Positions 8,143 to 55,154 of a DNA stretch of 64,000 bases are shown here, piece by piece; the first letter of the stretch is position 1, and each line of letters opens with the position of its first letter. The DNA comes from an uncultured Pseudomonadota bacterium (lineage in GTDB: Bacteria > Babelota > Babeliae > Babelales > Vermiphilaceae): contig CAYGJB010000002.1 in assembly GCA_964350195.1 (NCBI GenBank), forward strand, positions 15,675 through 79,674, read 5' to 3'. Under the pieces are notes generated by a model. It was not told the DNA's origin. It did not search any database and saw only the letters and a list, made by a program, of their open reading frames with translations. The position numbers were made by a program, and so were the translations under genes.

Positions 8143-10173
8143 CTATTGATAGAATCCTGAAGCTATCACATACGTTTTGCCATCTTTCTCAACTGATGAA
8201 ACATAATTGAGCTTTTTCGCTTGGTTCAAATACGCTTTAACAACCACCGGTCCTTGTTGTGCCTCATTAATAAAAGCCTTAATGAACGGTTTGCCTTTTT
8301 CATCTTTAATATCAAAAATATTACGCCAAATCAGATCAAAATCATTGCCATAGACATAACACAAGCCCGATGTATCTACGACGATAATCTCAAGATCTCC
8401 TCGTCTGAATCTACCATCAGTCTGTACAAATTGCTCAAATGCAACCGTACGACTATTTACTTTTAAGTAACTTGCAGCGCTTTGTACAAGCAGAATCATC
8501 GTTTCTGATTTTGATACTGGATAGTAACTTGAAGCAATTACATACTGGCCCACTCCTAAATCAATTCGCTGAGCAAACATTGATTCGAATGACCCCTTAA
8601 TCTTTGCATTCACCCAAATGCCCTGCTTAGTAGCCCGCTTAAGCATATTTTTGATATATGGTAAACCATCTTCATCTTTTGCATCAAGCATACTGCGACC
8701 AATATTATCCGCATTGTCACCATCAGCCACTACTTTTCCCTTTAGATCGTACACCATTATCGTAAGATCACCATATCGAAAATCATCATCGCGTCGCGAA
8801 GTAAAAGCTTCAACAGAGTTTGATTTTCCATGAGTTTTCATAAATTGGTATCCCTTGCGCACAAGGTCTATTGTACGCTCGCGATCAGCATCCGGGTAGT
8901 AACCACAAGCAATAAAGTAATTGTTCCCCTTTTTATCTTTTACTTTTTCCGCATATGCTTTCTTTGGCGCACGCTTTGAAATATAATCAACCCACACACC
9001 CTTAGTGCTTGTTTGTAGCTTTTTAACGATTTCACGATTTACATATTTGCCGTTTGAATCTTTGTAATCCCACGCATTTGAATTGATCAATCCAGGTCGC
9101 TCACCTTGCGCCTTAATCTTGCCATTAAAATCAAGCGCATACAGATATAGATTCCCCGCAACAAATGACCCACTCGGATAGCTTAATCGGCTAAACGCCC
9201 AGTCAGCCGGCTGGCCTTCTTCTTTGGTTTTGTTAAAGAGCGCTACACCGCCCTTCACTAAATTAACTACCGCCTCTTCTTTTGAATGTGGATAGTAACC
9301 AGCACCGATTGTGTATAGTTGGCCATATTTTTCCACCATTTCCACATAAGCAACTTTTGTTGCATTATGCCAGCCATACGTTACCCAGCCTCCACCATTT
9401 TTTGCTGTATTAATAATATCTCGGACAATATAGCTACCAACCCAATCCTGCAGATCGTAAAGATTTTTCCAAATCATATGAGAATCATCGCCATGCGCAA
9501 TACAAGTACCATGCACATCATACACAAAAACGTATAAATCTCCTTTAATAAACTCTTTTGTATGGCTAAATCGATTGCAGGCAATGTCAAGCGGCTTATC
9601 TAACAATTCTTGCTGTGCCATCTTTACAAGAGTTACCACATCCTTCTTTTTTTGCTCGATATCAAAGCTCAGTTCATCCGCCATTAAGATAGGTTCTGAT
9701 TTCTGTTCTTTTTTTTCTTTGTCTGTCTTATAGGTAATGATTGCATCGTCTTCCTCTTCATTTTCATCTTCATCAGCAGCAGCGCTTTCTGCTGACGCTG
9801 TAAGACTCTGAAGATCCGATTGTAATGCAGCAGAATCATCTTCTGATTCCCCTGTCTCTTCCATCTCAGCTAAGGCACTGTTTTCTTCGGTAGGCAAATG
9901 CGAAGTTTCATCCTGCCATTCGGCAGACTCATCATCCATAGGTTCGGACTCTTTTAATGATGAAAACTCTTCATCCGTAGAATCTTCTATAGATTCTTTT
10001 GGCTCTTGTACTTCTTTTTCGATCAGCTCTTCAGCTTTCATACCTTCATCATCAACGCTCATGGTACTTTTAAGATCAGAAGCCAATTTATTAATTTGAT
10101 CTAGATCTATTTTCTCCGCAGCAAAAATCGCAAATATAGTTATTGATATAAAAGCTACTAACCCTTTTTTCAT
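8143..10173 (-). CDS. secreted protein with four tandem single-Cache (sCache_2-like) domains and an acidic linker
   Basis: Signal peptide, then a D/E-rich region (aa 40-165), then a roughly 120-aa unit repeated four times. Each unit carries GDLYVFVYDVHG / GNLYLYALDFNG / GDLTIMVYDLKG / GDLEIIVVDTSG and ends in YTIGAGYYP / YFIACGYYP / YVIASSYYP / YVIASGFYQ. Confidence 0.7.
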   Translation of the reverse strand: MKKGLVAFISITIFAIFAAEKIDLDQINKLASDLKSTMSVDDEGMKAEELIEKEVQEPKESIEDSTDEEFSSLKESEPMDDESAEWQDETSHLPTEENSALAEMEETGESEDDSAALQSDLQSLTASAESAAADEDENEEEDDAIITYKTDKEKKEQKSEPILMADELSFDIEQKKKDVVTLVKMAQQELLDKPLDIACNRFSHTKEFIKGDLYVFVYDVHGTCIAHGDDSHMIWKNLYDLQDWVGSYIVRDIINTAKNGGGWVTYGWHNATKVAYVEMVEKYGQLYTIGAGYYPHSKEEAVVNLVKGGVALFNKTKEEGQPADWAFSRLSYPSGSFVAGNLYLYALDFNGKIKAQGERPGLINSNAWDYKDSNGKYVNREIVKKLQTSTKGVWVDYISKRAPKKAYAEKVKDKKGNNYFIACGYYPDADRERTIDLVRKGYQFMKTHGKSNSVEAFTSRRDDDFRYGDLTIMVYDLKGKVVADGDNADNIGRSMLDAKDEDGLPYIKNMLKRATKQGIWVNAKIKGSFESMFAQRIDLGVGQYVIASSYYPVSKSETMILLVQSAASYLKVNSRTVAFEQFVQTDGRFRRGDLEIIVVDTSGLCYVYGNDFDLIWRNIFDIKDEKGKPFIKAFINEAQQGPVVVKAYLNQAKKLNYVSSVEKDGKTYVIASGFYQ

Positions 10174-10891: not shown

Positions 10892-11057
10892 AAAAACTCC
10901 TTGTAAAGCATAAAGTCATTAATAAACACATGCATTCAATATAGGATCCAAACTGGTTTTGTTCAACTTTTTTGCACCAGCCGACCAAAAAGAATATGAT
11001 AGCTAATATCTTATACATGAATTTGCGGTAGCTAAAATAATTATTAAAGGAGATGTT

Positions 11058-11726
11058 ATGAATCGTATTACCACCCTATCTATAGCTTTACTACTTTCCT
11101 GCTCGCTTGCCGCCTGGAAGGGAACAGAACCCATTGGAGAACAGCCTATATTTATGGGAGTTCTTTCAAGCCAAGAAGGAAATGTATTTAATGTTACCAA
11201 TATCTCTATAGGACGCTCACGAGATACTCATGAAAAAATTATACTGTACGAAATGCCAAAAAATCTTAAAGAAAAGTCCAAGAATAACTTTCTTTCAATG
11301 AACCCAAATGAAGATCTCACCACGGCACAATTAGAGATCATCAAAACAAAAAAAATTGAAGTACCAAATCCACACACTCTGTGGTTATGGAAAGAGAAGG
11401 ACAGCAAACGATCTGTTACCATTGCACGGGAATACATTGAGGTTATTGTTACATGGAAATCTGGTGGAGCAGTACATTATTTGTTAGAATTAGGCCCTGA
11501 AGATAGCCGTCGACCCGTTAAAATATTTTGTGATGTGATCGATAAACCAGTCACTGGCATAAGGCAAGACGGCACACTTTTTTGCCCGGGCCTAACAAAA
11601 AATGATTTACACAAAAAAGGAGCCCCTTTTCCTTCTGTGAAATCGTTAGTACTTGAAGAACCATGTTTTAAAGTTCCTACAGAAAATGGCGGCACAGTAA
11701 AACAAAACAGTAACACGAAAAAATAA
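11058..11726 (+). CDS. hypothetical lipoprotein
   Basis: Signal peptide with lipobox LLSC. There is an AAAGGAG RBS upstream. No recognisable domain. Confidence 0.6.
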   Translation: MNRITTLSIALLLSCSLAAWKGTEPIGEQPIFMGVLSSQEGNVFNVTNISIGRSRDTHEKIILYEMPKNLKEKSKNNFLSMNPNEDLTTAQLEIIKTKKIEVPNPHTLWLWKEKDSKRSVTIAREYIEVIVTWKSGGAVHYLLELGPEDSRRPVKIFCDVIDKPVTGIRQDGTLFCPGLTKNDLHKKGAPFPSVKSLVLEEPCFKVPTENGGTVKQNSNTKK

Positions 11727-11737
11727 AGGATATTGCT

Positions 11738-12055
11738 ATGGCAATTTCAGTCACCAAAGAAAATTTTGATACAGAAGTACTTAAATCTAATAAACCAGTT
11801 ATTATTGATGTATTTGCAAGCTGGTGCGGACCATGTCAGCAAATGATGCCAATAATCGAAGAGCTGGAACAAGAGCATGCCAACTTCAAATTCGTAACAC
11901 TTAATGTTGATGAAGCTCGTGAACTTTCCATTAAATATGGCGTTATCTCTGTTCCTACATTTCTCTTTATAAAAAATGGAGAAGTGGTAGGCAAAGAAAC
12001 TGGCTACATGAGTAAAGATCAATTCACTGAAAAAATGGAAGCGGCATTAAAATAA
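11738..12055 (+). CDS. trxA: thioredoxin
   Basis: 105 aa with the WCGPC active site and the VPT cis-Pro loop. Confidence 0.95.
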   Translation: MAISVTKENFDTEVLKSNKPVIIDVFASWCGPCQQMMPIIEELEQEHANFKFVTLNVDEARELSIKYGVISVPTFLFIKNGEVVGKETGYMSKDQFTEKMEAALK

Positions 12056-14446: not shown

Positions 14447-16993
14447 ATGATGCCAACACAGTTAAAACGATGTTTGGTTTATGGTGTATTGATAGGCATA
14501 ACAATTTGTATGCCTCTCTTTATTTTAGCAGAAATACCCGGTAGCTCTTCTTCTTCACAAGAAGAGAAGAAACAAAACTATGTTCAAGCACAAAGACGTA
14601 TTCGCGCGATACATATCATTGGAAATAAAGCAATTACGCAAGAATCACTTTTAAACTATATACCCTATCAGGTTGGCGATACGGTAATGATTCAACAAAA
14701 TGGCCAAATTGAAGGATCAGGACAGCTCATTCGTAAGCTTTATACACAGCTCAAACGGTTTCGTAATATTACATTGCTCGGCGATTTAATCGAGTCAAGT
14801 GAGCTCGATCTTTATATTTTGGTAGAAGAAAAACCTCCTCTTCTTGAAGTCCTTTTCAAAGGTAATAAACAGGTAAAGGACGCAGAAATACGCAAAAAAG
14901 TTGATATTAACGTACCAGCCGTCGACGCAGAAGAACTAAACGTTTTTGCAACTCACATGAAAAAGCTGTACTACGAGCAAGGCTATCAAAACGTAAAAAT
15001 AACCACCGCTCTTACCGTAAACGAAGAAGGATATGCCACCGCAACATTCACATTTGATGAAGGAAAAAAATCTCGTATTCGAAGAATTCGCTTTGAAGGT
15101 AATCACGCTTATAGCGAAAAAGACCTCAAAAATGCTCTTTTTACTCGTGAAGAATGGGTCTTAAGCTTTATTGATAAAACGGGTACCTTTCATCCCGAAC
15201 GGCTCGAAGCGGACAAGCATATGGTCGAGCAATTCTATCAAAATCATGGCTATCTTCATGCAAAAGTAATCAATGTTCGCATTGAAGAAGAGCCAGGCAC
15301 CAATATTCTCACACTTACTTTTGAAATTGAAGAAGGTAACCGCTATACCATTAAAAAAGTTGAAGCCCCAGGAAACGATTTAGTTTCAGAGCAGTTCCTT
15401 CTCGCAAATATTCCTGTACGTCCAGGCCAATATTATTCACGAGAACGCGTTGGCAATACTATAAAACAGATGGAATTCCTTTGGGGGAATATGGGATATA
15501 TTTTTGCTTCAATTGAACCGGGCGTAACCGTTGATGAAGATGAAAAAACGGTAAATGTTTCTTTCTCGTCAGATATCGGAAAAAAAATCGCGTTAAATCG
15601 TATCATCATCAAGGGAAATAAAAAAACACGCGATAAAGTTATTCGACGACGCATTCCGCTTAAGGAAGGTGGAACCCTCACACAAGGAGCAATGGATAGC
15701 TCAAAGAATGGTATTCAAAGTCTTGGTTATTTTGATGTACAAGATGGGGTGAACTGGAAAGTACGACGCCTCAATGATGAAGAAGCTGATCTTGATCTGA
15801 TTGTTAAAGAAGGAAAAACTGGTCATGCCAACATACAGCTCCAATTTGGTGGATCAGGCAAAGAAATAAATTCCATACTTTCCGCGGTAAGCGTAAAGGG
15901 ATCTATCGCCGATTCAAATCTCTTTGGTACTGGTACCTCCGTTAATCTTGAAGGTAGTTGGTCAAAGGATGAGCAAACAGTGCTGTTTCACATCGCACAG
16001 CCTTGGCTCTTTGACAAGCCACTTTCTGGTTCACTTGATATTTATCATAAGCGTCCTTCTTATGATCAGCTCAAACATCTCACTGCAGCAGTACATGCCC
16101 GCATAACTGGTGGCGCTACAACGCTCGGCTTTCTCACCAATCCTCGCTGGCCATTCTTTGATAGCTCACAAGTACTGTTTAGCCTTGGCATTGATAGCTT
16201 AAAATATAATGCACCTCCAGTACCATTCACATTTTCTCAATCTGATCTACCAAAGAATGTTACCGTCGCACAAGCAAACGCTGATTATCGTTCTATTATT
16301 GGAAAAGAATTTACACCAGGCGGCTTTCTTTGGCTTGCCAACCATTTAGAACAAGATAAGCGTAATCATCCCATACATAGTAGTCGTGGGCACAAATGGA
16401 AAATGACAACCAAGATTGCTGTACCTTCTCTCGACCCGCAAATAAGCGGGTTGAAAGAAAATGCTGCTTTGCGTCGTCTTGGTTTTGGAAAAATATTTTT
16501 TGATTATACCTGGTATACACCACTAATCAATGAACAAGATCTAGTATTTAAACTACATCTTTTTTTCGGTTTTGCGGCTCCCTATAGTAATAAACTTATT
16601 CCTTTTGGTGAGCTGTTTCATGTTGGCGGTGATACAACCGTTCGTGGTTTCTCCTACGGAGAAATTGGACCAAAATTCTTAGGAGATACGATTGGTGGAA
16701 AAAAAGCAATGTTCATGAACGCAGAGCTTATTTTCCCAATTACGCAAGATATGAGTATGAAAGGGGTAGTATTTTATGACGGCGGTTCCGGATGGGATAA
16801 TCCGTATGTTACTGATCAAATGATATCACAGGGATTGGTAACCGATAACAGTTTTGATTATCGCCACTCCGTTGGCTTTGGCATTCGCATGCTCAGACCA
16901 GTTCCGGTGCGAGTTGATTGGGGCTTTAAGCTCGATCCTCGCACAGGAGAAAAAGAAAGTCAGATCCATTTTGGCATGACATACGATTGGTAA
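14447..16993 (+). CDS. bamA: outer membrane protein assembly factor BamA (Omp85)
   Basis: 848 aa with a signal peptide, repeated POTRA-like units (I..I.I.GN...), a C-terminal barrel with VRGF and a terminal ...GMTYDW. Confidence 0.9.
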   Translation: MMPTQLKRCLVYGVLIGITICMPLFILAEIPGSSSSSQEEKKQNYVQAQRRIRAIHIIGNKAITQESLLNYIPYQVGDTVMIQQNGQIEGSGQLIRKLYTQLKRFRNITLLGDLIESSELDLYILVEEKPPLLEVLFKGNKQVKDAEIRKKVDINVPAVDAEELNVFATHMKKLYYEQGYQNVKITTALTVNEEGYATATFTFDEGKKSRIRRIRFEGNHAYSEKDLKNALFTREEWVLSFIDKTGTFHPERLEADKHMVEQFYQNHGYLHAKVINVRIEEEPGTNILTLTFEIEEGNRYTIKKVEAPGNDLVSEQFLLANIPVRPGQYYSRERVGNTIKQMEFLWGNMGYIFASIEPGVTVDEDEKTVNVSFSSDIGKKIALNRIIIKGNKKTRDKVIRRRIPLKEGGTLTQGAMDSSKNGIQSLGYFDVQDGVNWKVRRLNDEEADLDLIVKEGKTGHANIQLQFGGSGKEINSILSAVSVKGSIADSNLFGTGTSVNLEGSWSKDEQTVLFHIAQPWLFDKPLSGSLDIYHKRPSYDQLKHLTAAVHARITGGATTLGFLTNPRWPFFDSSQVLFSLGIDSLKYNAPPVPFTFSQSDLPKNVTVAQANADYRSIIGKEFTPGGFLWLANHLEQDKRNHPIHSSRGHKWKMTTKIAVPSLDPQISGLKENAALRRLGFGKIFFDYTWYTPLINEQDLVFKLHLFFGFAAPYSNKLIPFGELFHVGGDTTVRGFSYGEIGPKFLGDTIGGKKAMFMNAELIFPITQDMSMKGVVFYDGGSGWDNPYVTDQMISQGLVTDNSFDYRHSVGFGIRMLRPVPVRVDWGFKLDPRTGEKESQIHFGMTYDW

Positions 16994-29857: not shown

Positions 29858-29899
29858 AAAAAAACTGGCCCCGCCAGCCGAAGCCTTAGCGAAGGCTGG
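29858..29899 (-). terminator. GC-rich hairpins plus T-run overlapping the recombinase stop codon
   Basis: The minus strand reads CCAGCC..GGCTGG, then CTGG-cgggg-CCAG, followed by TTTTTTT. The segment is a strikingly GC-rich patch in AT-rich DNA. Confidence 0.4.
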
Positions 29900-31357
29900 T
29901 GCACCACTTTCTAGTTTTTTTCGATTCCATCAACATTTTAAACACCGGTTTCAGCTCTACATCGAGCTTTCCGTCCTTATATGAGCAGTGGTAAACTAGA
30001 ATGTTAATAAGCCGTCTTTTTTGATCAGTATTTTGCTTTTTAAAGAGCGGGAGGGCTTTCTTTGCAAGTTCTATAACAAGGTTGGCATTTTTAAGGTAAT
30101 TGCGATCGGCTTTTTGTAGAGATGAAAGCTTGTCGGTCAGTCGCTGTTTTTCATCTAGCCAGTTTGTAGTGTGAGATTGCCAAAATTCTTCGCTTATTTT
30201 TTTATCGAGCTTATCAAGATAGGCAGCATCAATCCTTTTCTGCAAGAACTTGATTTGGCGCTCTGTCTGGCCTACGACCTTGTTATGATATTCCATTTTG
30301 TCCACAAGGCTTGAGCGTAGTCCGTGTAGGATTAAGTCATGCGCTTCATCAGATATGGTAAGTGACTCTAGAACATCCTCAAAGGTGCTTTCAACCACTT
30401 CCTGCTTGAGATATGGCTGTTTGCAGTTTCCCTTATATCCCGTGCATCGATAGTAAATGTATTTTTCCTTTTTGAATTCAGCAGTTAATGCGCATCCGCA
30501 TATGCCACACTTCATTAAATTAGCATAAGGAAAGAGACCCTTTTTTGATTTGTTCTTATACGGGTTTCTGAGCATCCCTTGTACTTTATGATAGAATTCT
30601 TTTGAGATAATTGCTTCATGGGAAGCATTTTCGCATTTTTCTGATCCCCCGTAAAAAACTCCGGTATAGAATTCATTTTTAAGAATGTGCTCAACCTTGC
30701 TGCTATAGAAATTTTTTCCATTCCGATAAATCATGCCATCAGCAAGCATTTTTTTGCGAAGGCCTAGAAGAGAAAAGGAACCTGTGGCATAGAGATCGAA
30801 CATTTTTTCACGTATGGAGCTGTATCGGGATCGATTACAATGACTTTTTTGCCATCAACTCAGGCATTTAGATAGCCGTAAGGAGCTAGTGAAGGATATG
30901 TGCCTTGTGCTGCTTTTTCTTTCATGCCTTTTGTTACTTCTTCAGATAGAATATCAATATAGCTCTCTGCCATTACGGCTTTGATACTAAACATGAACTT
31001 TTCATTGGATCGTGCATCTTTGCCAAGAATCGAATTTTCTTTTGCCAAATGTACTGAGACATCTGAAGAGCTAAATAGCTTTTTGATGATCACATAATCA
31101 GACATGTTTCTGAGTAATCGATCAGTTTTTTCAACTAAGAGGTGTTTGATACCATGTTCTGCAATAAAATTGAGCATAAGGTTGAATTGCTTACGGCCAG
31201 CCTTTTTTGCAGTTTCGGCATCAATAAATTCTCTAGCAATGCTATAGCCATTTTTTGAGGCATATTCCTGCAAAAATTTAAGTTGGGCGGGAATAGAAAA
31301 CCCTTCAGATTCCTGATCTTTCGATGATACGCGAGCATAGATGACTGCTTTATTCAT
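29886..31357 (-). pseudogene. large serine recombinase, disrupted by an in-frame TGA and a homopolymer frameshift
   Basis: N-terminal resolvase domain (AVIYARVSSKDQ..., catalytic Ser). Recombinase domain (VIVIDPDTAPYVKKMFDLY), zinc ribbon (CGICGCALTAEF...YYRCTG) and coiled coil. A TGA at 30860-30862 is in frame with VDGKKVIVIDPDTAPYVKK. The A6 run (30803-30808) shifts the frame before MFDLYATG. Confidence 0.85.
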
Positions 31358-31536
31358 TATTCTTCTTTTTTCTTTGAGCTAGCGGCTTGTGTTTTTTGGA
31401 GATGTTCTTGTATAGCTTCAACTACAATTTCACGCATACTTTTACCCTGGACAGCAGCCATAGCCTTAAATCGCTTGTGATCAGCCTCAGGGATATCAAT
31501 AGTAATACGAGATAAACTTCTTTTTTTAGGTTTCAT
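31357..31536 (-). CDS. ribbon-helix-helix (CopG/ParG-like) DNA-binding protein, 59 aa; not in the supplied ORF track
   Basis: Hand translation gives MKPKKRSLSRITIDIPEADHKRFKAMAAVQGKSMREIVVEAIQEHLQKTQAASSKKKEE, a beta-strand plus two helices in the RHH pattern. GAGG RBS upstream. The TAA stop overlaps the recombinase ATG (TAATG). Confidence 0.7.
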   Translation of the reverse strand: MKPKKRSLSRITIDIPEADHKRFKAMAAVQGKSMREIVVEAIQEHLQKTQAASSKKKEE

Positions 31537-31572: not shown

Positions 31573-32130
31573 TTATTCATTATACAGAAATAAAATGTTA
31601 GATTTTTTATCGAAGTGAAAGGTGTGTACTGCGAGGGATGATGGAGCATTGATCAGAATATTCTCTAGGGCATCTATTACACGTCTCATATAATGCTTAT
31701 ATTCTTCGATTGTAGGAAAAATAGAAGGGCATATTCCAGTTCTCGCATAGCTAATCATGGCATAATGTTCTTTGCGAAATTGTGCAGTATCAATGTTTTT
31801 TTGCGTAAGATTTTGGATAGCAATGTCATGGTACGCAAAATCATAGCGCTCAAAAAATACCATAATTTGGTTTAAACTATACCAGGCTGCAACTGTTTTA
31901 TATTGATCATAGTATGATTGCTTGAGTTCGGCCGTAGGATGATGAGGCATGCTATCGATCCAAGTTTTCATTTTTTCCTCCTCAGCCTGAATTTGCCTGC
32001 AAGCTTCATTGAAATAAGGGCGAGTAAGATTGAGTGCAAATTCATGAAGTAAGGGAAAAAAGAAAAAAGGGTCAGCGATATTTGATGCTTGAGAAAGAAT
32101 AGATTTTAATTTTTCGATTGAATTGATCAC
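31573..32130 (-). CDS. hypothetical protein (185 aa), first gene of the orf185-RHH-recombinase unit
   Basis: Long ORF, co-directional with the RHH gene and 36 nt upstream of it. No recognisable motifs. Confidence 0.5.
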   Translation of the reverse strand: MINSIEKLKSILSQASNIADPFFFFPLLHEFALNLTRPYFNEACRQIQAEEEKMKTWIDSMPHHPTAELKQSYYDQYKTVAAWYSLNQIMVFFERYDFAYHDIAIQNLTQKNIDTAQFRKEHYAMISYARTGICPSIFPTIEEYKHYMRRVIDALENILINAPSSLAVHTFHFDKKSNILFLYNE

Positions 32131-32235
32131 TTTTTATTACTTCTTGAGGTATTGGATTATGCAAACGAAAAAGTTCTAAAATAATCCGATAGTGCACATG
32201 TGCACCTTTGACGAATATTTGGGAAATGAAAAAGA

Positions 32236-33330
32236 ATGGCGGATTGTAGAAAACTAATGAAGAATTTTTTGATTTACTATTTACTTGTTACTGCTTGTTC
32301 AACTCTTATAGGTCATGGCTTCAGTGTACACACGCTTATTCATGTTGCCGATGGCTCATGCATTGAAATTGAACAATTGTGCCGTCAGACGCTACATAAA
32401 AAGGTGATAGTTGCAACATATGATAATAAGGGTGGTTTTGGGAGTAAAAGTGTAAAAAGATGTGGTCGCAGTAAAACAGAGCAATTCATTAACGTTTGGC
32501 TTGAAGGACACGATAAAATTACGTGCACTCCAGTACAGGAATTTTATCGTGCATCAACGAAGCAATGGGTGCCAGCATACAAACTTAAGATAGGCGATGT
32601 TCTCTTTTGTAAAAATGTAAATAAAAGTATTTCTTACGTAGAATATGTCAAAAAGAGGATTGATGTTTTCATATTTGAGATGCCTCGGCCACACACTTTT
32701 TTTGTCGGACGTAGCGGTGTATTAACACACAACATGGCCTTGCCTATTGTCTGGAGCATTGGTGCAAGTGTGTCGCTTGGCACTGTGGCTGGAAGTTCTC
32801 TCGGATCTTTTTTTGGACCGGTAACATTAATGGCAGGAGCTGTTGTAGGCTCTTTAATAGGTGTATGTGTTTCAATAGTGCAGCATGATCACATACCAAA
32901 ATATTCTTTTGAGAGTATCAATATACATTTATTTGATGAATACCTACAGCGCAATCAGAGATCAACATCGGTTGATAGTAATGGTGGAACTATAAGTTCT
33001 ACTCCAGACGGTCCAAAAAAAGATGATGAAGAAGAAAAAAAATATGAAATATCTGACAAGGATAAAAATCATATTTTCAGAAATTCAGAAGGGCATTTTT
33101 CAAAAGATACCCCGGAATCTAGAGCAATAATAGAGAGTATGGTTAATAAAAAGGGTAATTTTAAAGGGTTTGATAAGTATGGTAATGAAGTTTATTTGGA
33201 AAATTTACCAGACGGTTTTCAAATATGGGCAAAAGCAAGAAATGGCCAGATAAGATGGGCAGGTAAGAATGCAGTGCCATGGAGCTATGAATTGGGTATA
33301 GATTTAATTAGACCGCTTGTTAAAAATTAG
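32236..33330 (+). CDS. secreted HINT-domain polymorphic-toxin-like protein
   Basis: Signal or TM leader. HINT/bacterial intein-like module about aa 29-166 (FSVHTLIHVADGS...IGDVLF...HTFFVG..GVLTHN). Gly-zipper TM region (aa 168-215). Polar linker, then a roughly 95-aa C-terminal module (NHIFRNSEGHF...GFQIWAKARNGQIRWAGKN). Confidence 0.7.
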   Translation: MADCRKLMKNFLIYYLLVTACSTLIGHGFSVHTLIHVADGSCIEIEQLCRQTLHKKVIVATYDNKGGFGSKSVKRCGRSKTEQFINVWLEGHDKITCTPVQEFYRASTKQWVPAYKLKIGDVLFCKNVNKSISYVEYVKKRIDVFIFEMPRPHTFFVGRSGVLTHNMALPIVWSIGASVSLGTVAGSSLGSFFGPVTLMAGAVVGSLIGVCVSIVQHDHIPKYSFESINIHLFDEYLQRNQRSTSVDSNGGTISSTPDGPKKDDEEEKKYEISDKDKNHIFRNSEGHFSKDTPESRAIIESMVNKKGNFKGFDKYGNEVYLENLPDGFQIWAKARNGQIRWAGKNAVPWSYELGIDLIRPLVKN

Positions 33331-33342
33331 ATTAGGGATTCT

Positions 33343-33750
33343 ATGAAAAACGAACTGACTAAGCTAGAAGCTTTTAAAGCGATGACTAAGTTTCTAGAAA
33401 AGTGGTATGAGCTTACAAAGTCTGACGATATTGGATCGCTTCTTGGTGGTATAGATATAAATTTTTGGTGTAATGGTAAGCCATTTGATCCGGCTTTGTG
33501 GGGTGATTGGTTAGATGCTATTAATGTTGTTTTTAATAAGAAAGATGTAGACATTTTGACCGTTGAAGAGGCTTTTGAGGTTGTAACAAAGTTTTTGGAA
33601 AAATTGTATGTATATCCAATACCTGATGACATCCAAAGTTTATTAAGTGGTATGGGCACCGATCCTGCTTTTTATGAAGACTGGAAAAAGTCTATTTTTG
33701 AAACATTAAAATCACGTAATAATTATTGGGAGAAATGCACTAATGATTAA
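33343..33750 (+). CDS. candidate immunity protein with internal duplication
   Basis: Starts 12 nt after the toxin gene. It has two homologous halves: [33 protein letters not shown] and [33 protein letters not shown]. Small, acidic and cytoplasmic. Confidence 0.55.
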
Positions 33751-34084
33751 TTTGCCAAAATGTCCAAAATGTAGTTCAGAGTATACTTATGAAGATAATA
33801 GAATTTTGATTTGCCCTGAATGCGCTCATGAGTGGAACGTAGAAGCAGAAATCAGCAAGGTTGAAAATAAAAAGATTGTCAAAGATGCGCATGGAAATAT
33901 CTTGAATGATGGGGACTCTGTAGCGCTCATCAAAGATCTTAAACTAAAAGGAAGTTCATCGACCATAAAAGCTGGTACAAAAGTAAAAAACATACGGTTG
34001 GTCGATGAAGATCATAATATTGATTGCAAAGTTGATGGATTTGGCAAAATTGGTTTGAAATCTGAATTTGTCAAAAAAATATAG
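33743..34084 (+). CDS. yjdM: PhnA/YjdM zinc-ribbon protein
   Basis: [12 protein letters not shown]...CPECAHEW zinc ribbon plus a C-terminal SH3-like domain (D.NGN.L.DGDSV..IKDLK.KG.S..IK.GTKV..IRL). 113 aa. Confidence 0.85.
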
Positions 34085-34110: not shown

Positions 34111-34192
<82 letters not shown>

Positions 34193-34249
34193 AAAATGAG
34201 TTCAAAAAATAAGAACTATTAGTATACCCTAGGGCACACAAACCGCAAA

Positions 34250-35764
34250 TTATACACCTTTATTCTGAGGCGCCACAAACAACTTGCCAAACTCTTTCGC
34301 CACATCTTTGAGTCGTTCGATCATTTCATCAGAAATTTCTTGTGTATAAAAAATGGTATCGTACAACTCTTCTTTATAAACCGATTTTACATAGCTCACA
34401 AACTGAGTTACAAACGCATGCAACTGTGCCACTTTCACCGATTCTAAAAAATCATAGCGAAGAAGAAACAGCATGAGTGATTGATCCACAAAAGAGTAGG
34501 TGACGTATTGCGGCTGTTTTAAAAGTTCTATTGCGCGCTCTCCACGAGCTAACCTGCGCTTGGCCACATCATCGAGCTCAGTGCCAAACTGGGCAAAATC
34601 AAGAAGCTCATGATACTGAGCAAGATCAAGCCGCAATGCTTTGGTCATCTTCTTAATTGCATCTGTTTGAGCAGCACCCCCTACACGAGACACAGAAAGC
34701 TCTGCGTTCACGGCCGGACGAATACCCTGATTGAAAAGCTGGGTATCTAGAAATATTTGGCCATCAGTGATTGAAATCAGGTTGGTTGAAATATAAGAAG
34801 TAATATCGTCACTTTGAATCTGCACAATAGGAAGAGCAGTGAGCGAACTTCCAGATTTCAGCTTACCGGCACGTTCAAGCAAACGGGAATGCAGATAAAA
34901 AACATCTCCTGGATAAGCTTCGCGCCCTGGAGCTCTGCGTAAAAGCAAAGACATTTCACGATACGCAACTGCATGATTACTTAAGTCATCGTAAATGATT
35001 AATGCATCATGCCCTTTCTCTCTGAAATATTCACCGATCGTACAACCAGCATACGGCACCAAGTATTGATTTAATACCGCTTCGCTTGCTTCTGCGCTAA
35101 TGATAACGGTGTAATCTAATGCGCCATTTTCTTGCAGCAAACGCATAATACGAGCAACATTCGCTTGCCGTTGGCCGATAGCCACATAAATACAAATCAT
35201 ATTTTTATCGCGCTGATGCATAATTGTATCAATAACCAGAGACGTTTTACCGGTATTACGGTTACCAATAATCAGCTCCCGTTGGCCCCTACCAATAGGA
35301 AAAAGTGCATCAACTGCTATGGTGCCGGTCTCAAGCGATTGATTCACTGGAGAGCGTTCGATAATGCCTGGAATTTCCCACTCAATAGGCCAATGATCAT
35401 CATATTTAATTTCACCAAGACCATCCACGGGATTTCCCATGGCGTCAATTACACGACCAAGCAAATTCATACCAACTGGCGTTTTGAATACGCTACCGGT
35501 ACGTTTTGCAACTTCACGTTCATTCACCGGAATGTTGCTATGTAACAAAAAAATAGAAACGATATCTTCGTCTAGTTGAAGAACAATTCCCTGATTGCCC
35601 CCTTCAAAAATAATAAGCTCATGATACACAGCATTGTTGAGCCCATGCACTCGGCAGATACTATCACCCACCTGTACCACTATACCGATTTCTTCCAACT
35701 TTTCCTCGGGAAGATCACGCAGTGATTGTTCAAAAAGCGACACCAAATCAATATTTTTTTCCAT
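34250..35764 (-). CDS. atpA: F1 ATP synthase subunit alpha
   Basis: 504 aa. GRVIDAMGNPVDG, P-loop GNRNTGKTS, DDLS.HA.AYRE.SLLLRR.PGREAYPGDVFY.HSRLLER. Confidence 0.95.
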   Translation of the reverse strand: MEKNIDLVSLFEQSLRDLPEEKLEEIGIVVQVGDSICRVHGLNNAVYHELIIFEGGNQGIVLQLDEDIVSIFLLHSNIPVNEREVAKRTGSVFKTPVGMNLLGRVIDAMGNPVDGLGEIKYDDHWPIEWEIPGIIERSPVNQSLETGTIAVDALFPIGRGQRELIIGNRNTGKTSLVIDTIMHQRDKNMICIYVAIGQRQANVARIMRLLQENGALDYTVIISAEASEAVLNQYLVPYAGCTIGEYFREKGHDALIIYDDLSNHAVAYREMSLLLRRAPGREAYPGDVFYLHSRLLERAGKLKSGSSLTALPIVQIQSDDITSYISTNLISITDGQIFLDTQLFNQGIRPAVNAELSVSRVGGAAQTDAIKKMTKALRLDLAQYHELLDFAQFGTELDDVAKRRLARGERAIELLKQPQYVTYSFVDQSLMLFLLRYDFLESVKVAQLHAFVTQFVSYVKSVYKEELYDTIFYTQEISDEMIERLKDVAKEFGKLFVAPQNKGV

Positions 35765-35770
35765 AATTCC

Positions 35771-36307
35771 TCAACAAATGTGCGTACGTGCACATGCGCG
35801 CAAATACTTTTGAACCGATGATTCCCACAGCAATGCTCCACTCGAAATTTTTATCCCCGCAATCAATGCCGGTGCCACTCGAAATTCAAACTCTTTCGTT
35901 CCTTTAAAATGACCTTGCGCAAAAGAAACGAGCTCTCTTTTGGTCTCATCAGACAATGAGCATGAGCTTTCTACGAGAACAGTTACTATATTATGAACTT
36001 TATTATATTGGACTACGATTGCCTCAAAAACTTGTAATAGAAAATAGCCTCGCCGATGCTCAATAAGCAAATCAAATAAGCGAATAAATGGTGCTGCTGG
36101 CAGATCAAATCGCGCACAAAGCTCCTTCACCCCTTTTCGCTTTACCTCTGGCTTGATCGTGGGCACGGTGAGCAAAAATAATGCTCGGCGATGATCTTTA
36201 AAAAAGGTTATTGTTTTTTTTAATTGATTAATTGTATCGCGAGAAATTTCCGGTCCGAATAGATTGATGAATGCTTGTGCGTATTTCTGTGCCATTGGAG
36301 ATATCAT
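35771..36307 (-). CDS. atpH: F1 ATP synthase subunit delta (OSCP)
   Basis: 178 aa. The N-terminal A.KYAQAF, the size, and the position between atpF and atpA support the call. It overlaps the atpF stop. Confidence 0.75.
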   Translation of the reverse strand: MISPMAQKYAQAFINLFGPEISRDTINQLKKTITFFKDHRRALFLLTVPTIKPEVKRKGVKELCARFDLPAAPFIRLFDLLIEHRRGYFLLQVFEAIVVQYNKVHNIVTVLVESSCSLSDETKRELVSFAQGHFKGTKEFEFRVAPALIAGIKISSGALLWESSVQKYLRACARTHIC

Positions 36308-36804
36308 GCACTCTCCATTCTTTTCATCGCTTTTGAAATAAACAGCTCTTGCGATTTCTCTGCTGCAAACTTACTCGAAAGATTTTCTTTTATTTCGGCC
36401 AAAGCATCCCCTTTTACCGATTGATACAGACGGTATTCAGATACACGAGCAATCTGTTCTTTTAGACGAATATCAAGCTTTTTCTTGCGATCATCAAGCG
36501 CAGTGGCCATAGCGTAATGCTCCTTATCAACCGCCTGCCGCCATGTAAATAAACGCTCTTTAAGCATCGCTCGGTCCTCATCCTCAAAACGAATCGTCTT
36601 TTTTATATTATTGTGCTCTTTGCGTAATACCGTATGGGTACGAGATAATGTATCGAGGTAATCAATCTGAGCATTATAAGCAGATTGAACTATTTGCCTT
36701 CCAAAACGCTTCCATAGATACCAAAAAATACCAATCAAAACCCCGAAATTGGCCAAGCGAAAAAAAATGAGAATGGTCTGAGAACTATTCATAGCGTTCC
36801 TCAA
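36304..36804 (-). CDS. atpF: Fo ATP synthase subunit b
   Basis: Single N-terminal TM helix plus a long charged helix. The operon position fits. Confidence 0.7.
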   Translation of the reverse strand: MRNAMNSSQTILIFFRLANFGVLIGIFWYLWKRFGRQIVQSAYNAQIDYLDTLSRTHTVLRKEHNNIKKTIRFEDEDRAMLKERLFTWRQAVDKEHYAMATALDDRKKKLDIRLKEQIARVSEYRLYQSVKGDALAEIKENLSSKFAAEKSQELFISKAMKRMESA

Positions 36805-37156
36805 ACTCTTGCGCTATAGCACGTACGAGCTTATTCCGTACCACCTTCTGTTCTGATTCAGAAAATGGTTTGATACTGATCATCGGCGAGATACCTCTAA
36901 AAAGAGATACGTGTGATTTTACAGAAGGAATATATTCTGCACACCAGCCAGTAAAGCGTACCCAAGCAGCTTTTTGATGTTGACGCTCTGTTTCAACAGA
37001 GTGCTTATCATGCGTAACGGTATCTTCGAGAGAATGTCGATGGGCCTCCTGCACACACAACTCACGATAAGCTGGTTTTAAAAAAAAATAGCGAAAAAGA
37101 AGATAGGCAATAAAAAAATTGCCCGCCTGGACAAATATCGTGGCATTAATATTCAT
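36785..37156 (-). CDS. Fo ATP synthase subunit b'-like (divergent)
   Basis: MNINATIFVQAGNFFIAYLLFRYFFLKP is a b-type N-terminus. The gene sits between c and b as in b/b' operons. The ATG at 37156 is preferred over the TTG at 37165. The C-terminal part is atypical. Confidence 0.55.
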   Translation of the reverse strand: MNINATIFVQAGNFFIAYLLFRYFFLKPAYRELCVQEAHRHSLEDTVTHDKHSVETERQHQKAAWVRFTGWCAEYIPSVKSHVSLFRGISPMISIKPFSESEQKVVRNKLVRAIAQEFEERYE

Positions 37157-37308
37157 AGAAACCAACCATTAGAAAGCACCATGTATGGAAAATGTGGAAA
37201 AGTTTTTTTCATTAGCGCACCGTCCGCTTCACTATATTCCATTTATTATAAAAACAATATAGCTAAAAATAGCGCGGAAGCGCAAAATATTCAATATCTT
37301 ATTGTAGC

Positions 37309-51608: not shown

Positions 51609-54600
51609 CTAATCTTTATTTTTTCTTGAAGGGCTTGCTAAGTGCTGAAGATTATCTGCCTGACGCGTAAGAAGAAGGCGAGCTGGCAGTGCAATCTTAA
51701 TGTCTTTTTCATTAAATGCTTTTATGATATTTATGCGTATATTACTCGCTATTTCCCATTTTTCAAGCGTATATACTGAGCTTATAAAGCCACGAACCAT
51801 AAATTCATAGCCATACTCTCCAAAATGATCAAGGCGCACCCATGGCTTTGGATTTTTCAAAATAGTGGGATGACTCTCAACAACTTCATAAAGCACTTTA
51901 CGCACCAATTCTGGATCTTCTTTGTAATCCACATGAATCTTAATATCGTCAAATGCGATAAAATTACGTGTATAGTTCCAGTTGATAATTGTTTTACTTA
52001 TCAAAAAGGAGTTGGGTACAATAAGCGTCGTACTATTCTTGCGACGAAGAATAACTGATCGTGCAGTTATTTTACGAACTACCCCTGTGACTTCACCGTC
52101 AATTCTAATATAATCACCAATCTTAACCGGCCGCTGCACAAGAATAATAAAATAGGAGACAAAATCAGAAATAGGATCTTTCAATACCCAGCCCAAACCG
52201 AGTATTAAAGCACCAACAATATAGTTAACCAACGCCCCAAGCTTTGCGTTTTGAAAACCAAGAAACACGAACGTAATAATAACTAAATATTGGGTGAGAC
52301 TCGAAAATGTATGCTGTATTCCTGAATCAACAAGTAATAGATCAAAAACACGATCAAGCACAAACTTATTAAGACCATATGCAACTATAAAACCAATAAG
52401 AATAAATATAAGAAGATTAAAAAAGGTAATAAACGATATAGGACTTTCTGTGCCAGCACCAATCACCGGATAATCAATAAGCTCTCTAATCCGATAAAAT
52501 GTTATTGGCCATCCCCATATTTTAGCCGCTACAATTATGCCAAAAAAGCTAAGAAGCAAAAACGAAACTATTATAGTTATACCAAACCAGGTCTTTGCAT
52601 TTGCAAATCGCTCACGAGCTACATCATCCACGCTTGAAAAGTATACTCTAGAAGCAATGCGCTTGAATACTCCATGCAAATAATACAATACAAGAAAAAG
52701 TGCAATCGTATACAACCATCCAAAAAGTGCATAAAGCACCAACCTGCCAAATCCCACATATGGATTACTCATCACAATAATGGTGATGAAAAGCAGTAGA
52801 ATGAGATAGTAAAAGCGATCTACTTTCTCCCGTACCCATTGGCCAACTTCAGTACGTACTGGAATAAAGCTGAGTATTTGCTCTTTATCTAATAAGAGAA
52901 TGAGGCCTATCTGAAAAATGATAAAATTGATCGCAAGCAAAATCGTAGGAAGCTCAGAACGATAATAGTGAGCCAGCATAAATGCTTCACGGAAAAAGAA
53001 AATGGTGATAGTTGAATACATGAGCACGGTAAGCACAAACCAAAAACGTCGCTGAAAATCAGATGCTATGAAAGCATATTCATTTTCTTCGTTATATCGT
53101 GTGAGAAAATACACAAATCGATTAGAAAGATACAGAAGATACGCAATAGAAATAAGGTAGAAAATAATATAAAGATACGTATCAACAGTGTCTTGAAAAA
53201 ATAAAGCCGAGAACAAAACAATCCAGAAAGCCACTGCAAAAAAATAGGTATTAAAAAATTCGCTGATACCTGCTAATAAAATAGCTATCATGCGAATCAA
53301 ACCATGGCCTGTCAGACCACGCAACAAAATGGCTAGCTTTGGAAGTAGCCGATAGAAGATAAAAAGAACAATGCCTAGCATTAGCAATTTAAAAAGAAGC
53401 GTAACCCAGGCCATTGGATCTTTAACCGCATCATACAAACGGTTTGCGGTACTAATCACCGCTCCGTGAGTGAAATAATTCCGAACAAACATGAAAAAAT
53501 TAACCACGTCCGGTAAAATATTTTTAATACCATCCCAAGTTATTGCGTATTCAGGACGATACCAAATCGTACGAGATTCAAGCTCTCCAGTAATAAATCC
53601 AATCAGTCTAAGCTTGTTACTCACCACCAAAGATATTCCAGAGTAAATACCTGTTAGCTTACTGAGAAGATCAACTTCTTCTCTTTCAAGAAGCTCTGAT
53701 TGATTAATCAATCTTAGACAGGTGCCATACTCTGTAGCACGTGATCTAAAAATAGTATCTTGATCTTTTTTAATCTGCTTTTTAAGAGCAATGATATTAT
53801 CTATTATCTTTTTTTTATGGTTTATTTGATCAGCTACATGGCTCATTCGTTCTTTTGAGCGAGAGAACCCTGCTTGAGATTCAGCTTTTGGACCATCATA
53901 CTTTTTAAGCTCAGCAGCAATCTCATCTTCGGTTGTAAACTTTCGATGGTAAGATTCTTTCACCAACAGGCTCAACTGCTCGTCTTTCATCTCTTCATCT
54001 TTAAGCCCAATCTGGGCCTCAATCAGCTCTTGCTTGCGTTGATAGAACGCAAGCTGTGTTTGCAGAGCAGCAACTTCAATATAGGCTAGATAAGAAGCAG
54101 AGGTTGGCTGAGACTCTTTTGACCAATCTATTATTTCCCGCCCAAGCGTAATGCCATGCTTTTTAGCCACATTCTGCAGCTCTTTTTGTGCTCGCTCTTC
54201 CTGAATCAACAGAGCATCGATTTCTGAGCGGTACTGTTCTTTTGTTTTACGGTATTTTTGATTTTTTTTATTCTGCTCTTCTCGCGCATGAACAATATCA
54301 GCTTCAGTAACTCGTACCGCTGGCTTGATCAGCTTTAGATACTCTTTAAAAATCGTAAGGTGTGACTTTGCAATCGAAAGCTGAAGAGAAAAAAATTCAA
54401 TCTTGTAGTCAGCCTCTTTTATACGCAAAGCATCAAGAACTTTTCGATAGCTAAATATTCGCTCTTCAATTGAAAGAAGCTCTCCTTGTTGCTGAGTATT
54501 AAATGCTTCATTATCCGTATACTTTCCAGTATTAATTTGCTCTTTTTTACTCGCATATGCCTCTTTTGTAGCTGCTGCTGCCCGTTTACTTGTTTCTCGT

Positions 54601-55154
54601 TCAGTAGCAGCATGCTTTTCTTCATCAGAAAGCACGCTTACTTTTTTCTCTTGATCCAAAATCAAATTATAAAGACGCTGTAAATCCTCAAACGAATAAA
54701 AAAGCCGCTCACCCAAGCGATACTCTTTTTTAAAGCTATTGTTATCAGGATCGGCAAGAAACTCTTTTAGCAACCGAATAAAGTCATCGAGCATCGTAAG
54801 AGTACGTTCTCGATCGCGAATTATATCTCTAAAAATTTGATAAAGCTCACTCAGAAGATGCTGCTTTTGCCTGAGAAAGTCATTGTCTGGCTTCTCTTTT
54901 ATTTGCAACGCGATCTGCTCAATTTGGCCGCGCGTTTCATCCGAGAGTGAACGCAGCTCCGCTTCGCGCTCTTGTTTTATTTTTTCAAGCTGTTCCCGTT
55001 CTGTTTGAAGTCGCTCGAGTTGCTTTTGTCTATTCTCAACCACTCCTACAAAGAGTTTGTCCGTTTTGGGTAACGGCAAACCAGGAGTGTCGGCATGCAA
55101 AACTGAACTAACTAATAGAAACAACGTAACAAGAAAAAGCATCTTTTTTTTCAT
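51609..55154 (-). CDS. MscK/MscM-like large mechanosensitive channel (MscS family)
   Basis: 1181 aa. Signal peptide, roughly 500 aa of periplasmic coiled coil, about 11 TM helices, and an MscS core (VQRPVKIGDYIRIDG..G.V.KI..RS..L...N....IVPNS). Confidence 0.88.
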   Translation of the reverse strand: MKKKMLFLVTLFLLVSSVLHADTPGLPLPKTDKLFVGVVENRQKQLERLQTEREQLEKIKQEREAELRSLSDETRGQIEQIALQIKEKPDNDFLRQKQHLLSELYQIFRDIIRDRERTLTMLDDFIRLLKEFLADPDNNSFKKEYRLGERLFYSFEDLQRLYNLILDQEKKVSVLSDEEKHAATERETSKRAAAATKEAYASKKEQINTGKYTDNEAFNTQQQGELLSIEERIFSYRKVLDALRIKEADYKIEFFSLQLSIAKSHLTIFKEYLKLIKPAVRVTEADIVHAREEQNKKNQKYRKTKEQYRSEIDALLIQEERAQKELQNVAKKHGITLGREIIDWSKESQPTSASYLAYIEVAALQTQLAFYQRKQELIEAQIGLKDEEMKDEQLSLLVKESYHRKFTTEDEIAAELKKYDGPKAESQAGFSRSKERMSHVADQINHKKKIIDNIIALKKQIKKDQDTIFRSRATEYGTCLRLINQSELLEREEVDLLSKLTGIYSGISLVVSNKLRLIGFITGELESRTIWYRPEYAITWDGIKNILPDVVNFFMFVRNYFTHGAVISTANRLYDAVKDPMAWVTLLFKLLMLGIVLFIFYRLLPKLAILLRGLTGHGLIRMIAILLAGISEFFNTYFFAVAFWIVLFSALFFQDTVDTYLYIIFYLISIAYLLYLSNRFVYFLTRYNEENEYAFIASDFQRRFWFVLTVLMYSTITIFFFREAFMLAHYYRSELPTILLAINFIIFQIGLILLLDKEQILSFIPVRTEVGQWVREKVDRFYYLILLLFITIIVMSNPYVGFGRLVLYALFGWLYTIALFLVLYYLHGVFKRIASRVYFSSVDDVARERFANAKTWFGITIIVSFLLLSFFGIIVAAKIWGWPITFYRIRELIDYPVIGAGTESPISFITFFNLLIFILIGFIVAYGLNKFVLDRVFDLLLVDSGIQHTFSSLTQYLVIITFVFLGFQNAKLGALVNYIVGALILGLGWVLKDPISDFVSYFIILVQRPVKIGDYIRIDGEVTGVVRKITARSVILRRKNSTTLIVPNSFLISKTIINWNYTRNFIAFDDIKIHVDYKEDPELVRKVLYEVVESHPTILKNPKPWVRLDHFGEYGYEFMVRGFISSVYTLEKWEIASNIRINIIKAFNEKDIKIALPARLLLTRQADNLQHLASPSRKNKD

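Follow-up and report, generated by a model that had tools for sequence, protein, structure and literature searches.

A signal peptide of the Sec/type II secretion system (T2SS) kind combined with a HINT domain has been listed as one of the routes of polymorphic toxins (Zhang et al. 2012, PMC3482391). In the earlier literature the HINT domain is placed just before the toxin, on a stalk, and firmicute toxins with a two-transmembrane domain and a HINT are mentioned. The locus considered here lies in a 64-kb stretch of contig CAYGJB010000002.1 from an uncultured bacterium (the whole stretch is called the window below). It consists of two open reading frames (ORFs) on the forward strand, a predicted toxin gene of 364 amino acids (aa) at 32236..33330 and, after a gap of 12 nt, a predicted immunity gene of 135 aa at 33343..33750. 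We consider it likely, from the comparisons described below, that the two genes form a polymorphic toxin-immunity pair in which the toxin is carried on a compact chassis with the order leader, HINT, glycine zipper, linker, and toxin. No second copy of either gene was found in the 64-kb window. The two ORFs and the gap reproduced exactly the coordinates given in an earlier reading of this DNA made from its letters alone (the sequence-only reading), and all the motifs named there were found: GHGFSVHTLIHVADGS from aa 26, HTFFVG..GVLTHN ending at N166, and KNHIF from aa 277.

The PT-HINT polymorphic toxins (PF07591; PMC3482391; PMC3113570) resemble the window protein in having a HINT upstream of an exchangeable toxin, a cognate immunity gene next to it, and a terminal His-Asn (HN). 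The window protein differs from them in three respects: the HINT comes first after the leader, without a stalk; the scissile bond lies about 100 residues (glycine zipper and linker) away from the toxin; and the equivalents of Cys1 and of the block-B His are replaced. With bacterial intein-like (BIL) domains and inteins (PDB 2LWY, 4E2U) the window protein shares the HINT fold signature, the C-terminal His-Asn, and, by prediction, cleavage rather than splicing in the absence of a +1 nucleophile. Unlike them, it has no N-extein and no Cys or Ser at position 1, and is predicted to be a one-shot C-terminal cutter within a toxin.

The hydrophobic module has described counterparts as well. DUF6861 is an N-terminal integral-membrane glycine-zipper domain found on Ntox15, TNT, EndoU, and CdiA tRNase heads (Pfam curators' preprint, bioRxiv 10.1101/2022.08.23.504947). 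As in DUF6861 proteins, a hydrophobic GxxxGxxxG module stands N-terminal to the toxin head, and after the predicted HINT cleavage the window protein would have the same layout. In the uncleaved window protein, on the other hand, the zipper is internal, after leader and HINT, and the function of DUF6861 is itself only predicted. Effectors with a prePAAR motif of type VI secretion systems (T6SS), such as Tse6, carry hydrophobic helices on a toxin that acts in the cytoplasm, and these helices are proposed to insert in the target membrane and let the toxin through; such effectors depend on PAAR, VgrG, Eag chaperones, and the T6SS. In contrast, PAAR, VgrG, Eag, and T6SS are absent from the window protein and its neighborhood in the window.

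Conserved chassis and exchangeable heads

Only five homologs of the whole toxin protein were present among 5.8 billion clustered sequences. They had aa 1-225 in common and then ended in three C-terminal types. Scans with the chassis added six loci in species-representative genomes and 32 in metagenomes. The order of elements was conserved throughout: a leader, a HINT starting with HG[FLI], then ..THN, [MI]xLP, and GxxxG..GSFFGP..G. We observed at least six head types on this chassis, and the small downstream ORFs differed by head type. Besides the HIFR..GH head of the window, these were FALDRFH.GDHFEVWD..NLDGS, PTLEI...IKIRY, HNGG.WK, the Pfam family Ntox37, and others. Tandem arrays of orphan immunity genes as well as frameshifted or truncated toxin copies were also seen among the chassis loci. 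Head-swapped chassis with matching neighbors, orphan arrays, and decayed copies therefore point to a polymorphic toxin family. Judged by these alignments, conservation of the chassis extends over the N-terminal 220 residues, whereas the head formed by the last ~100 residues is exchangeable and the adjacent downstream gene varies with it.

The shared aa 1-225 followed by at least six heads support a polymorphic toxin with a HINT and a variable C-terminal head, in line with the HINT-domain toxin of the sequence-only reading. That reading had also singled out the absence of an Rhs, filamentous, or LXG stalk as an oddity. The stalk is truly missing; the layout as such turned out to be less unusual, since the chassis recurs in more than 30 loci of metagenomes and metagenome-assembled genomes (MAGs), a Sec signal peptide with a HINT is an already listed route (PMC3482391), and the chassis was also seen in many representatives with the same head. 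In the literature we found no description of the order leader, HINT, glycine zipper (membrane segment), and toxin, which does not prove that there is none. As far as we found, neither the toxin head nor the immunity unit nor the order of domains in the chassis has been annotated or, apparently, described, though all are common in metagenomes; the overall kind of system is known.

Some of the chassis loci are worth describing for their downstream genes. In locus L004, a three-gene array at 10921..11891 coding for immunity-like proteins of ~100 aa (..SHDEDAFFEW[IL]KKI..) followed an Ntox37-headed chassis toxin; an orphan immunity-like gene of the same SHDEDAFFEW[IL]KKI type was located at 9705..10052 of locus L008, after a HIFR-type pair. 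The presence of this family in both loci suggests that immunity genes accumulate in these MAGs. At 2949..5251 of L003 we observed a chassis toxin with a frameshift and, after it, a tandem of four paralogous genes of 83-88 aa, and at 9947..11492 of L005 a truncated chassis toxin followed by two immunity-like genes, one of them internally duplicated. At these two loci decay is ongoing with immunity retained, in MAGs that also hold intact copies.

The chassis of the window protein begins with a putative Sec-type leader (aa 1-26, 32236..32313) whose hydrophobic core spans aa 7-25; every full-length relative has an equivalent leader in front of HG[FLI]. Cleavage presumably takes place after ..LIG, ..AHA, or ..VDA, just before the invariant H27-G28-F. 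A second start at M8 (32257) gives a 357-aa form with a more typical signal peptide; the identical protein (P0001/P0013) is recorded from M8 in NCBI and at full length in a Logan assembly. The leader of the window protein also has a lipobox-like L-V-T-A-C (aa 16-21, 32281..32298) that is absent from all relatives, and either lipidation of the window copy only or coincidence is possible.

The HINT domain (aa 27-166, 32314..32733) of the window protein scored 21.4 bits (E=3e-4) against Pfam PT-HINT, for which the gathering cut-off is 27.7 bits. Eight relatives with the same layout (P0002-P0004, L001, L002, L004, P0032, and P0066) passed the cut-off with 31-39 bits, which supports the family assignment. 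Weak matches of the window protein in PDB were to the Pho RadA intein, to a bacterial intein-like domain, and to a protein named 'intein C-terminal splicing domain'.

We read the conservation of HINT residues from chassis alignments with 5, 9, and 12 sequences; the invariant ones include E148, H153, F155, V157, L163, T164, H165, and N166. In intein nomenclature, the residues of blocks F and G (an acidic residue, a His, the penultimate His, and the terminal Asn) drive Asn cyclization. The full set for C-terminal cleavage is kept in the window HINT as E148, H153, H165, and N166. Position 1, which follows an invariant His, is an invariant Gly (G28) instead of Cys1, and an invariant Gln takes the place of the block-B His in the chassis alignments (T98-P-V-Q101, aligned to TPSH of the Pho RadA intein), with the His retained in one more distant relative, P0087. 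The +1 residue after HN was Met, Ile, Val, Thr, or Phe among the relatives and is M167 in the window protein. The marks of a splicing-competent intein (Cys or Ser at position 1, a block-B TxxH, and a +1 nucleophile) are thus absent from the window HINT. Since Cys1 and the block-B His are replaced and there is no +1 nucleophile, the domain should be unable to splice or to cut at its N-terminus; it appears to retain everything for a single cut at N166|M167. The mature protein would have no N-extein, because the leader runs directly up to H27-G28-F.

As N166|M167 precedes the glycine zipper, the predicted released piece carries the hydrophobic segment, the linker, and the toxin. It had been proposed that the HINT frees the C-terminal head; this holds with respect to the residues for the C-terminal cut, which are conserved, and not with respect to the product, which would be larger than the head alone. 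The glycine-zipper hydrophobic segment (aa 167-217, 32734..32886) is part of a continuously hydrophobic stretch, aa 166-217, moderate in hydrophobicity up to ~aa 192 and strong over aa 193-217. The 19-residue hydropathy varied from 1.1 to 2.2 across the stretch and was 2.2 over aa 196-214. Inside it we see G182-x3-G186-x3-G190-x3-G194 and G201-x3-G205, the repeated GxxxG expected from the glycine-zipper description in the sequence-only reading. P170, G182, G190, G194, and P195 were invariant in the 9-sequence chassis alignment, and the segment is conserved along with the chassis, not with the head. Among 21 representatives of HIFR-type heads with a recognizable HINT end, 17 had a hydrophobic, often Gly-rich stretch directly after HN, and three had the classical arrangement with the head straight after HN. 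The segment is followed by a Ser-rich, acidic, variable linker (aa 218-267, 32887..33036), weakly conserved and of different length among relatives; in locus L010 it is replaced by a 300-residue coiled-coil-like stretch.

Six chassis members (the window protein plus five relatives) matched DUF6861 (PF21724) in this segment, all of them below threshold (13.9-18.8 bits compared to the cut-off of 28) and only over profile positions 35-83, i.e., ~48 of 194. One further protein, among 86 representatives of the head, matched DUF6861 with E=1.8e-4. Gly-zipper_Omp gave a sub-threshold match in the hydrophobic segment, and a PADLOC scan gave nothing significant, the sole match being a chance-level LeoB on the glycine zipper.

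Glycine zippers are known from pore-forming toxins, and the one on the chassis is strongly conserved. One could then think of the zipper itself as the toxic part, a pore former like Tse5-CT or CdzC/D, with the C-terminal module in an accessory or targeting role. We regard this as extremely improbable. Covariation with the neighbor gene is seen for the C-terminus, not for the constant segment, and identifies the C-terminus as the toxic part. Also, RHS, contact-dependent inhibition (CDI), and classical HINT proteins carry the head without a glycine zipper and are still paired with this immunity family, and the immunity protein is predicted to be soluble and cytoplasmic, not membrane-embedded.

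The predicted toxin head and its putative immunity protein

The C-terminal toxin module consists of 97 residues (aa 268-364, 33037..33327). A profile built from three HIFR-type heads was scored on 1.84 billion representative proteins and gave 1,291 matches at E<=1e-3, 727 of them with E<=1e-10. In the best 150 of the 1,291 matches the head was located at the C-terminus, with the protein length varying from 91 to 2,413 aa. The N-terminal parts of 86 longer head representatives included PT-HINT in 22 cases, Hint_2 in 9, and RHS repeats in 3, and also MafB, PAAR, and PT-TG; short head-bearing fragments carry the source name 'filamentous hemagglutinin'. Copies of the head were found as an orphan module behind a 3,223-aa RHS protein (locus L009) and in the CDI locus of the Paraburkholderia phymatum plasmid pBPHY02.

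The heads share the motif HIFR..GH..Q.W..G.N.P. In an alignment of 38 sequences, H279, F281, G286, H287, G327, W331, and N345 were invariant and R282, N308, G311, Q329, G343, and P348 nearly so. The sequence-only reading could not assign the module to a named toxin family, and indeed profile and sequence searches against Pfam-A, NCBIfam, and PDB produced no assignment. The AlphaFold2 model (pLDDT 94, pTM 0.84) has two helices followed by a beta-meander. The best Foldseek match of this model in PDB had E=0.56, with RelE-like HigB and Cami1 at TM ~0.3; in BFVD the best match was a phage 'Nuclease' (E=0.044, TMq 0.49), which is not significant.

We tentatively take a metal-independent RNase to be the most likely activity of the head, because of the two invariant His and the near-invariant Arg, the small alpha+beta domain, the cytoplasmic immunity protein, and the company of scaffolds in which the module is found. 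The BECR and BECR-like RNase toxins (RelE/HigB, colicin D/E5, SRLase1) are likewise small domains with a helical part and a beta-meander, have conserved His and Arg, and occur on polymorphic scaffolds with small immunity proteins. The window head, in contrast, has no significant structure or sequence match to them: with respect to BECR-fold membership neither fold nor profile similarity reached significance, and the topology is compatible only. Identity of the head with SRLase1 was considered and rejected. The conserved residues of SRLase1 (R70, D72, H85, and H97) are on strands (preprint 10.64898/2026.09.18.752725), whereas the His residues of the head are in the N-terminal helix and a loop.

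The downstream gene (33343..33750) codes for an acidic protein (pI 4.6) without a leader. It is made of two repeats, the first (aa 1-67, 33343..33543) of FW.NG..FDPALW.DW type and the second (aa 68-135, 33544..33747) of GMG.DPAF..DW type. Local alignment of the two halves scored 96, compared to 23.5 +/- 4.5 (maximum 45) in 2,000 shuffles; the description of this protein as acidic and internally duplicated was therefore correct. Seven homologs were found, with one or two copies of a ~65-residue unit in either order and the consensus LT..EAF.AM.KFLEKYY..TKSDDI..LL.G....W..G...DPA.W.DW. For example, P0009 (76 aa) and the P. phymatum protein (71 aa) are single-repeat proteins of the repeat-1 type, and in P0007 the order of repeats is inverted. 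Since single-repeat forms exist, one unit suffices as a gene product; the fusion of two may broaden specificity.

Immunity homologs stand directly downstream of a HIFR-type head in four independent settings. In L008, a toxin 35% identical to that of the window is followed by a 147-aa two-repeat protein (hmmsearch E=5e-12). In L010, a 606-aa toxin with leader, HINT, hydrophobic segment, coiled coil, and HIFR head is followed by a 120-aa two-repeat protein and its paralog P0012. The orphan head in the RHS locus L009 is followed by a 119-aa immunity-homologous ORF, and the orphan head in the CDI locus of pBPHY02 by the 71-aa single-repeat protein. The suggestion that the downstream protein is the cognate immunity protein gains support from these homologs, which follow the same head on other scaffolds, and the recurrence of the head with the same kind of neighbor, which the sequence-only reading proposed to look for, was observed in RHS and CDI loci. 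The structure model of the immunity protein, made from a 7-sequence alignment, is all-alpha (pLDDT 82.7) and had no significant Foldseek match in PDB. Searches with immunity protein and head against Pfam, NCBIfam, and PDB gave chance-level matches only (Mvb12, PAP1, Emb, and CFAP115).

The same observations bear on the kind of cell attacked, for which the sequence-only reading had named both competitors and the host. Bacterial targets are favored because the immunity gene product is cytoplasmic and because the module is used on CDI and Rhs scaffolds; the host as a target is not favored. An effector against a eukaryotic host would have its released hydrophobic segment and toxin enter host membranes. 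This would go with a low-GC genome having many secreted proteins without known function, with relatives that come from uncultured MAGs, and with the universality of RNA as a target. Still, a dedicated, co-varying immunity gene indicates a head active on the producer's own kind of cell, and free-living Proteobacteria employ this head in their CDI and Rhs loci. A role as host effector is thus very unlikely.

Genomic setting of the pair

The pair is located inside a 4.5-kb stretch with G+C of 0.354, compared to ~0.39, bounded by a gene for a 131-aa secreted protein and by tRNA-Arg(tct), which comes directly after atpA. The other genes of this stretch are a split large serine recombinase, a ParD-like gene, a 185-aa ORF, and yjdM/phnA. 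The recombinase (29886..31357, minus strand) is in two frames, with the Resolvase N-terminal domain at 30860..31357 and the Recombinase domain and Zn-ribbon at 29886..30803; the split recurs in the gene calls of L007, an independent Logan contig. This recombinase is probably a pseudogene that belonged to an integrative element now decayed. The stop of the ParD-like ribbon-helix-helix gene (59 aa, 31357..31536, minus strand, E=8e-10) overlaps with the start of the recombinase, and no ParE-type partner of this gene could be recognized. The 185-aa ORF (31573..32130, minus strand) had no family match in Pfam, NCBIfam, or PADLOC. Altogether the stretch looks like a decayed mobile element. We searched for direct repeats of tRNA-Arg(tct) of the att type that would delimit the island, and found none.

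If the pair were cargo of a dead integrative element, it could itself be a non-functional remnant, neither expressed nor active. The adjacent recombinase in two frames fits such a state, as do the frameshifted and truncated toxin copies in related MAGs (L003 and L005) and a scan for promoters and terminators around the pair, which gave nothing convincing above background level. Conversely, both ORFs are intact, all residues invariant in the chassis and head alignments are kept, and the identical sequence is present in independent assemblies. We therefore consider a dead remnant highly improbable, and prefer a functional toxin-immunity pair.

A candidate operator of the toxin-immunity operon is a perfect 14-nt palindrome, GTGCACATGTGCAC, which we observed upstream of the pair at 32192..32205, 30 nt from the toxin start and beside a -35-like TTGACG. 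On the other side, yjdM/phnA (33743..34084, plus strand; zinc ribbon and PhnA domain, E=8e-50) shares 8 nt with the end of the immunity gene and may be co-transcribed with the pair. Beyond it, read along the minus strand, the genes for ATP synthase b', b, delta, and alpha (34111..37165) lead directly into tRNA-Arg(tct) and, after that, the toxin island. Genes for gamma, beta, and epsilon were not among the ORFs listed downstream (to ~25 kb), and the ATP synthase operon is either naturally split or interrupted here.

With respect to the producer, the genome is low in GC and the presence of a BamA gene indicates a diderm. The CysS of the window is 54% identical to that of a MAG with two chassis copies. 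Very large MscS-type channel proteins (~1,180 aa) are encoded both in the window (51609..55154, minus strand) and at 14878..17281 of L008, the contig with the closest full-length toxin relative, which hints that the two organisms are related.

Proposed mode of action

The modular genetics, the conserved residues, and the pairing of the genes are seen directly in the comparisons. We infer cleavage, membrane insertion, RNase activity, and an outer-membrane route in the producer, and arrange them in the following way. The leader would route the toxin through Sec, with signal peptidase cutting just before H27-G28-F, so that the mature protein would start with the HINT. The HINT would then cut once, at N166|M167, by Asn cyclization involving E148, H153, H165, and N166. 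The product would have a new glycine-rich hydrophobic N-terminus, followed by a flexible linker and the toxin. Upon entry of this product into a neighboring bacterium, the hydrophobic segment would most likely go into the membrane and aid the passage of the toxin to the target cytoplasm, a role comparable to that of the DUF6861 module and of the transmembrane helices of Tse6-type effectors. There the head, with His279, His287, and the near-invariant Arg282, would most likely act as a metal-independent RNase. The two-repeat helical protein, acidic and without a leader, would bind the head in the cytoplasm of the producer and of its kin and thus shield these cells.

Several observations weigh against this account. 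The producer is a diderm in which no route across the outer membrane is evident. The PT-HINT score of the window protein itself is below the cut-off, and the similarity to DUF6861, which is sub-threshold in every chassis member, may merely mirror the composition of a glycine zipper. The Foldseek matches of the head given above make the RNase assignment weak. Finally, the head would be left in the cytoplasm if the hydrophobic segment works in the producer as a stop-transfer sequence; Lys or Arg residues just past the segment, present in many relatives, would fit a cytoplasmic C-terminal side.

The last point leads to the main rival explanation, a type-I membrane protein that stays in the producer, with the leader removed, the HINT in the periplasm, the strongly hydrophobic aa 193-217 as the stop-transfer anchor, and the toxin kept in the cytoplasm by the immunity protein. 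The pair would then be an addiction or abortive-infection-like module of a decaying element. Besides the basic residues, this would be in line with a segment hydrophobic enough to span a membrane (see the hydropathy maximum above), with the lack of a leader in the immunity protein, and with the location of the pair next to a split serine recombinase and a ParD-like gene. On the other hand, the same head and immunity family are found on RHS, CDI, MafB, and PAAR export scaffolds, and head swapping, orphan immunity arrays, and decayed copies are typical for competition toxins. The loci of the chassis relatives do not have the neighbors seen in the window (recombinase, ParD, and others), and PADLOC had no significant match. 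A producer-bound protein is thus quite unlikely, and an exported competition toxin remains the preferred explanation.

One may carry the preferred explanation further and view the chassis as a self-contained delivery device that does without a secretion machine. HINT autocleavage would be the trigger that unmasks a glycine-rich end, similar to a viral fusion peptide, which would insert in the target membrane and carry along any head; in addition, a new fold of RNase type, provided with its own small repeat-built inhibitor, would be represented by the HIFR..GH head. We consider this full version unlikely as it stands.

With the HINT first and a membrane segment between the cut and the toxin, processing would not just free a head from its stalk but would uncover an end active on membranes. 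The head, with more than 1,200 representative clusters, a confident predicted structure, and neither a structural neighbor nor a family entry, is a ready target for biochemistry. The ~65-residue helical inhibitor unit, which occurs single or fused and in either order, lends itself to simple studies of the widening of immunity specificity.

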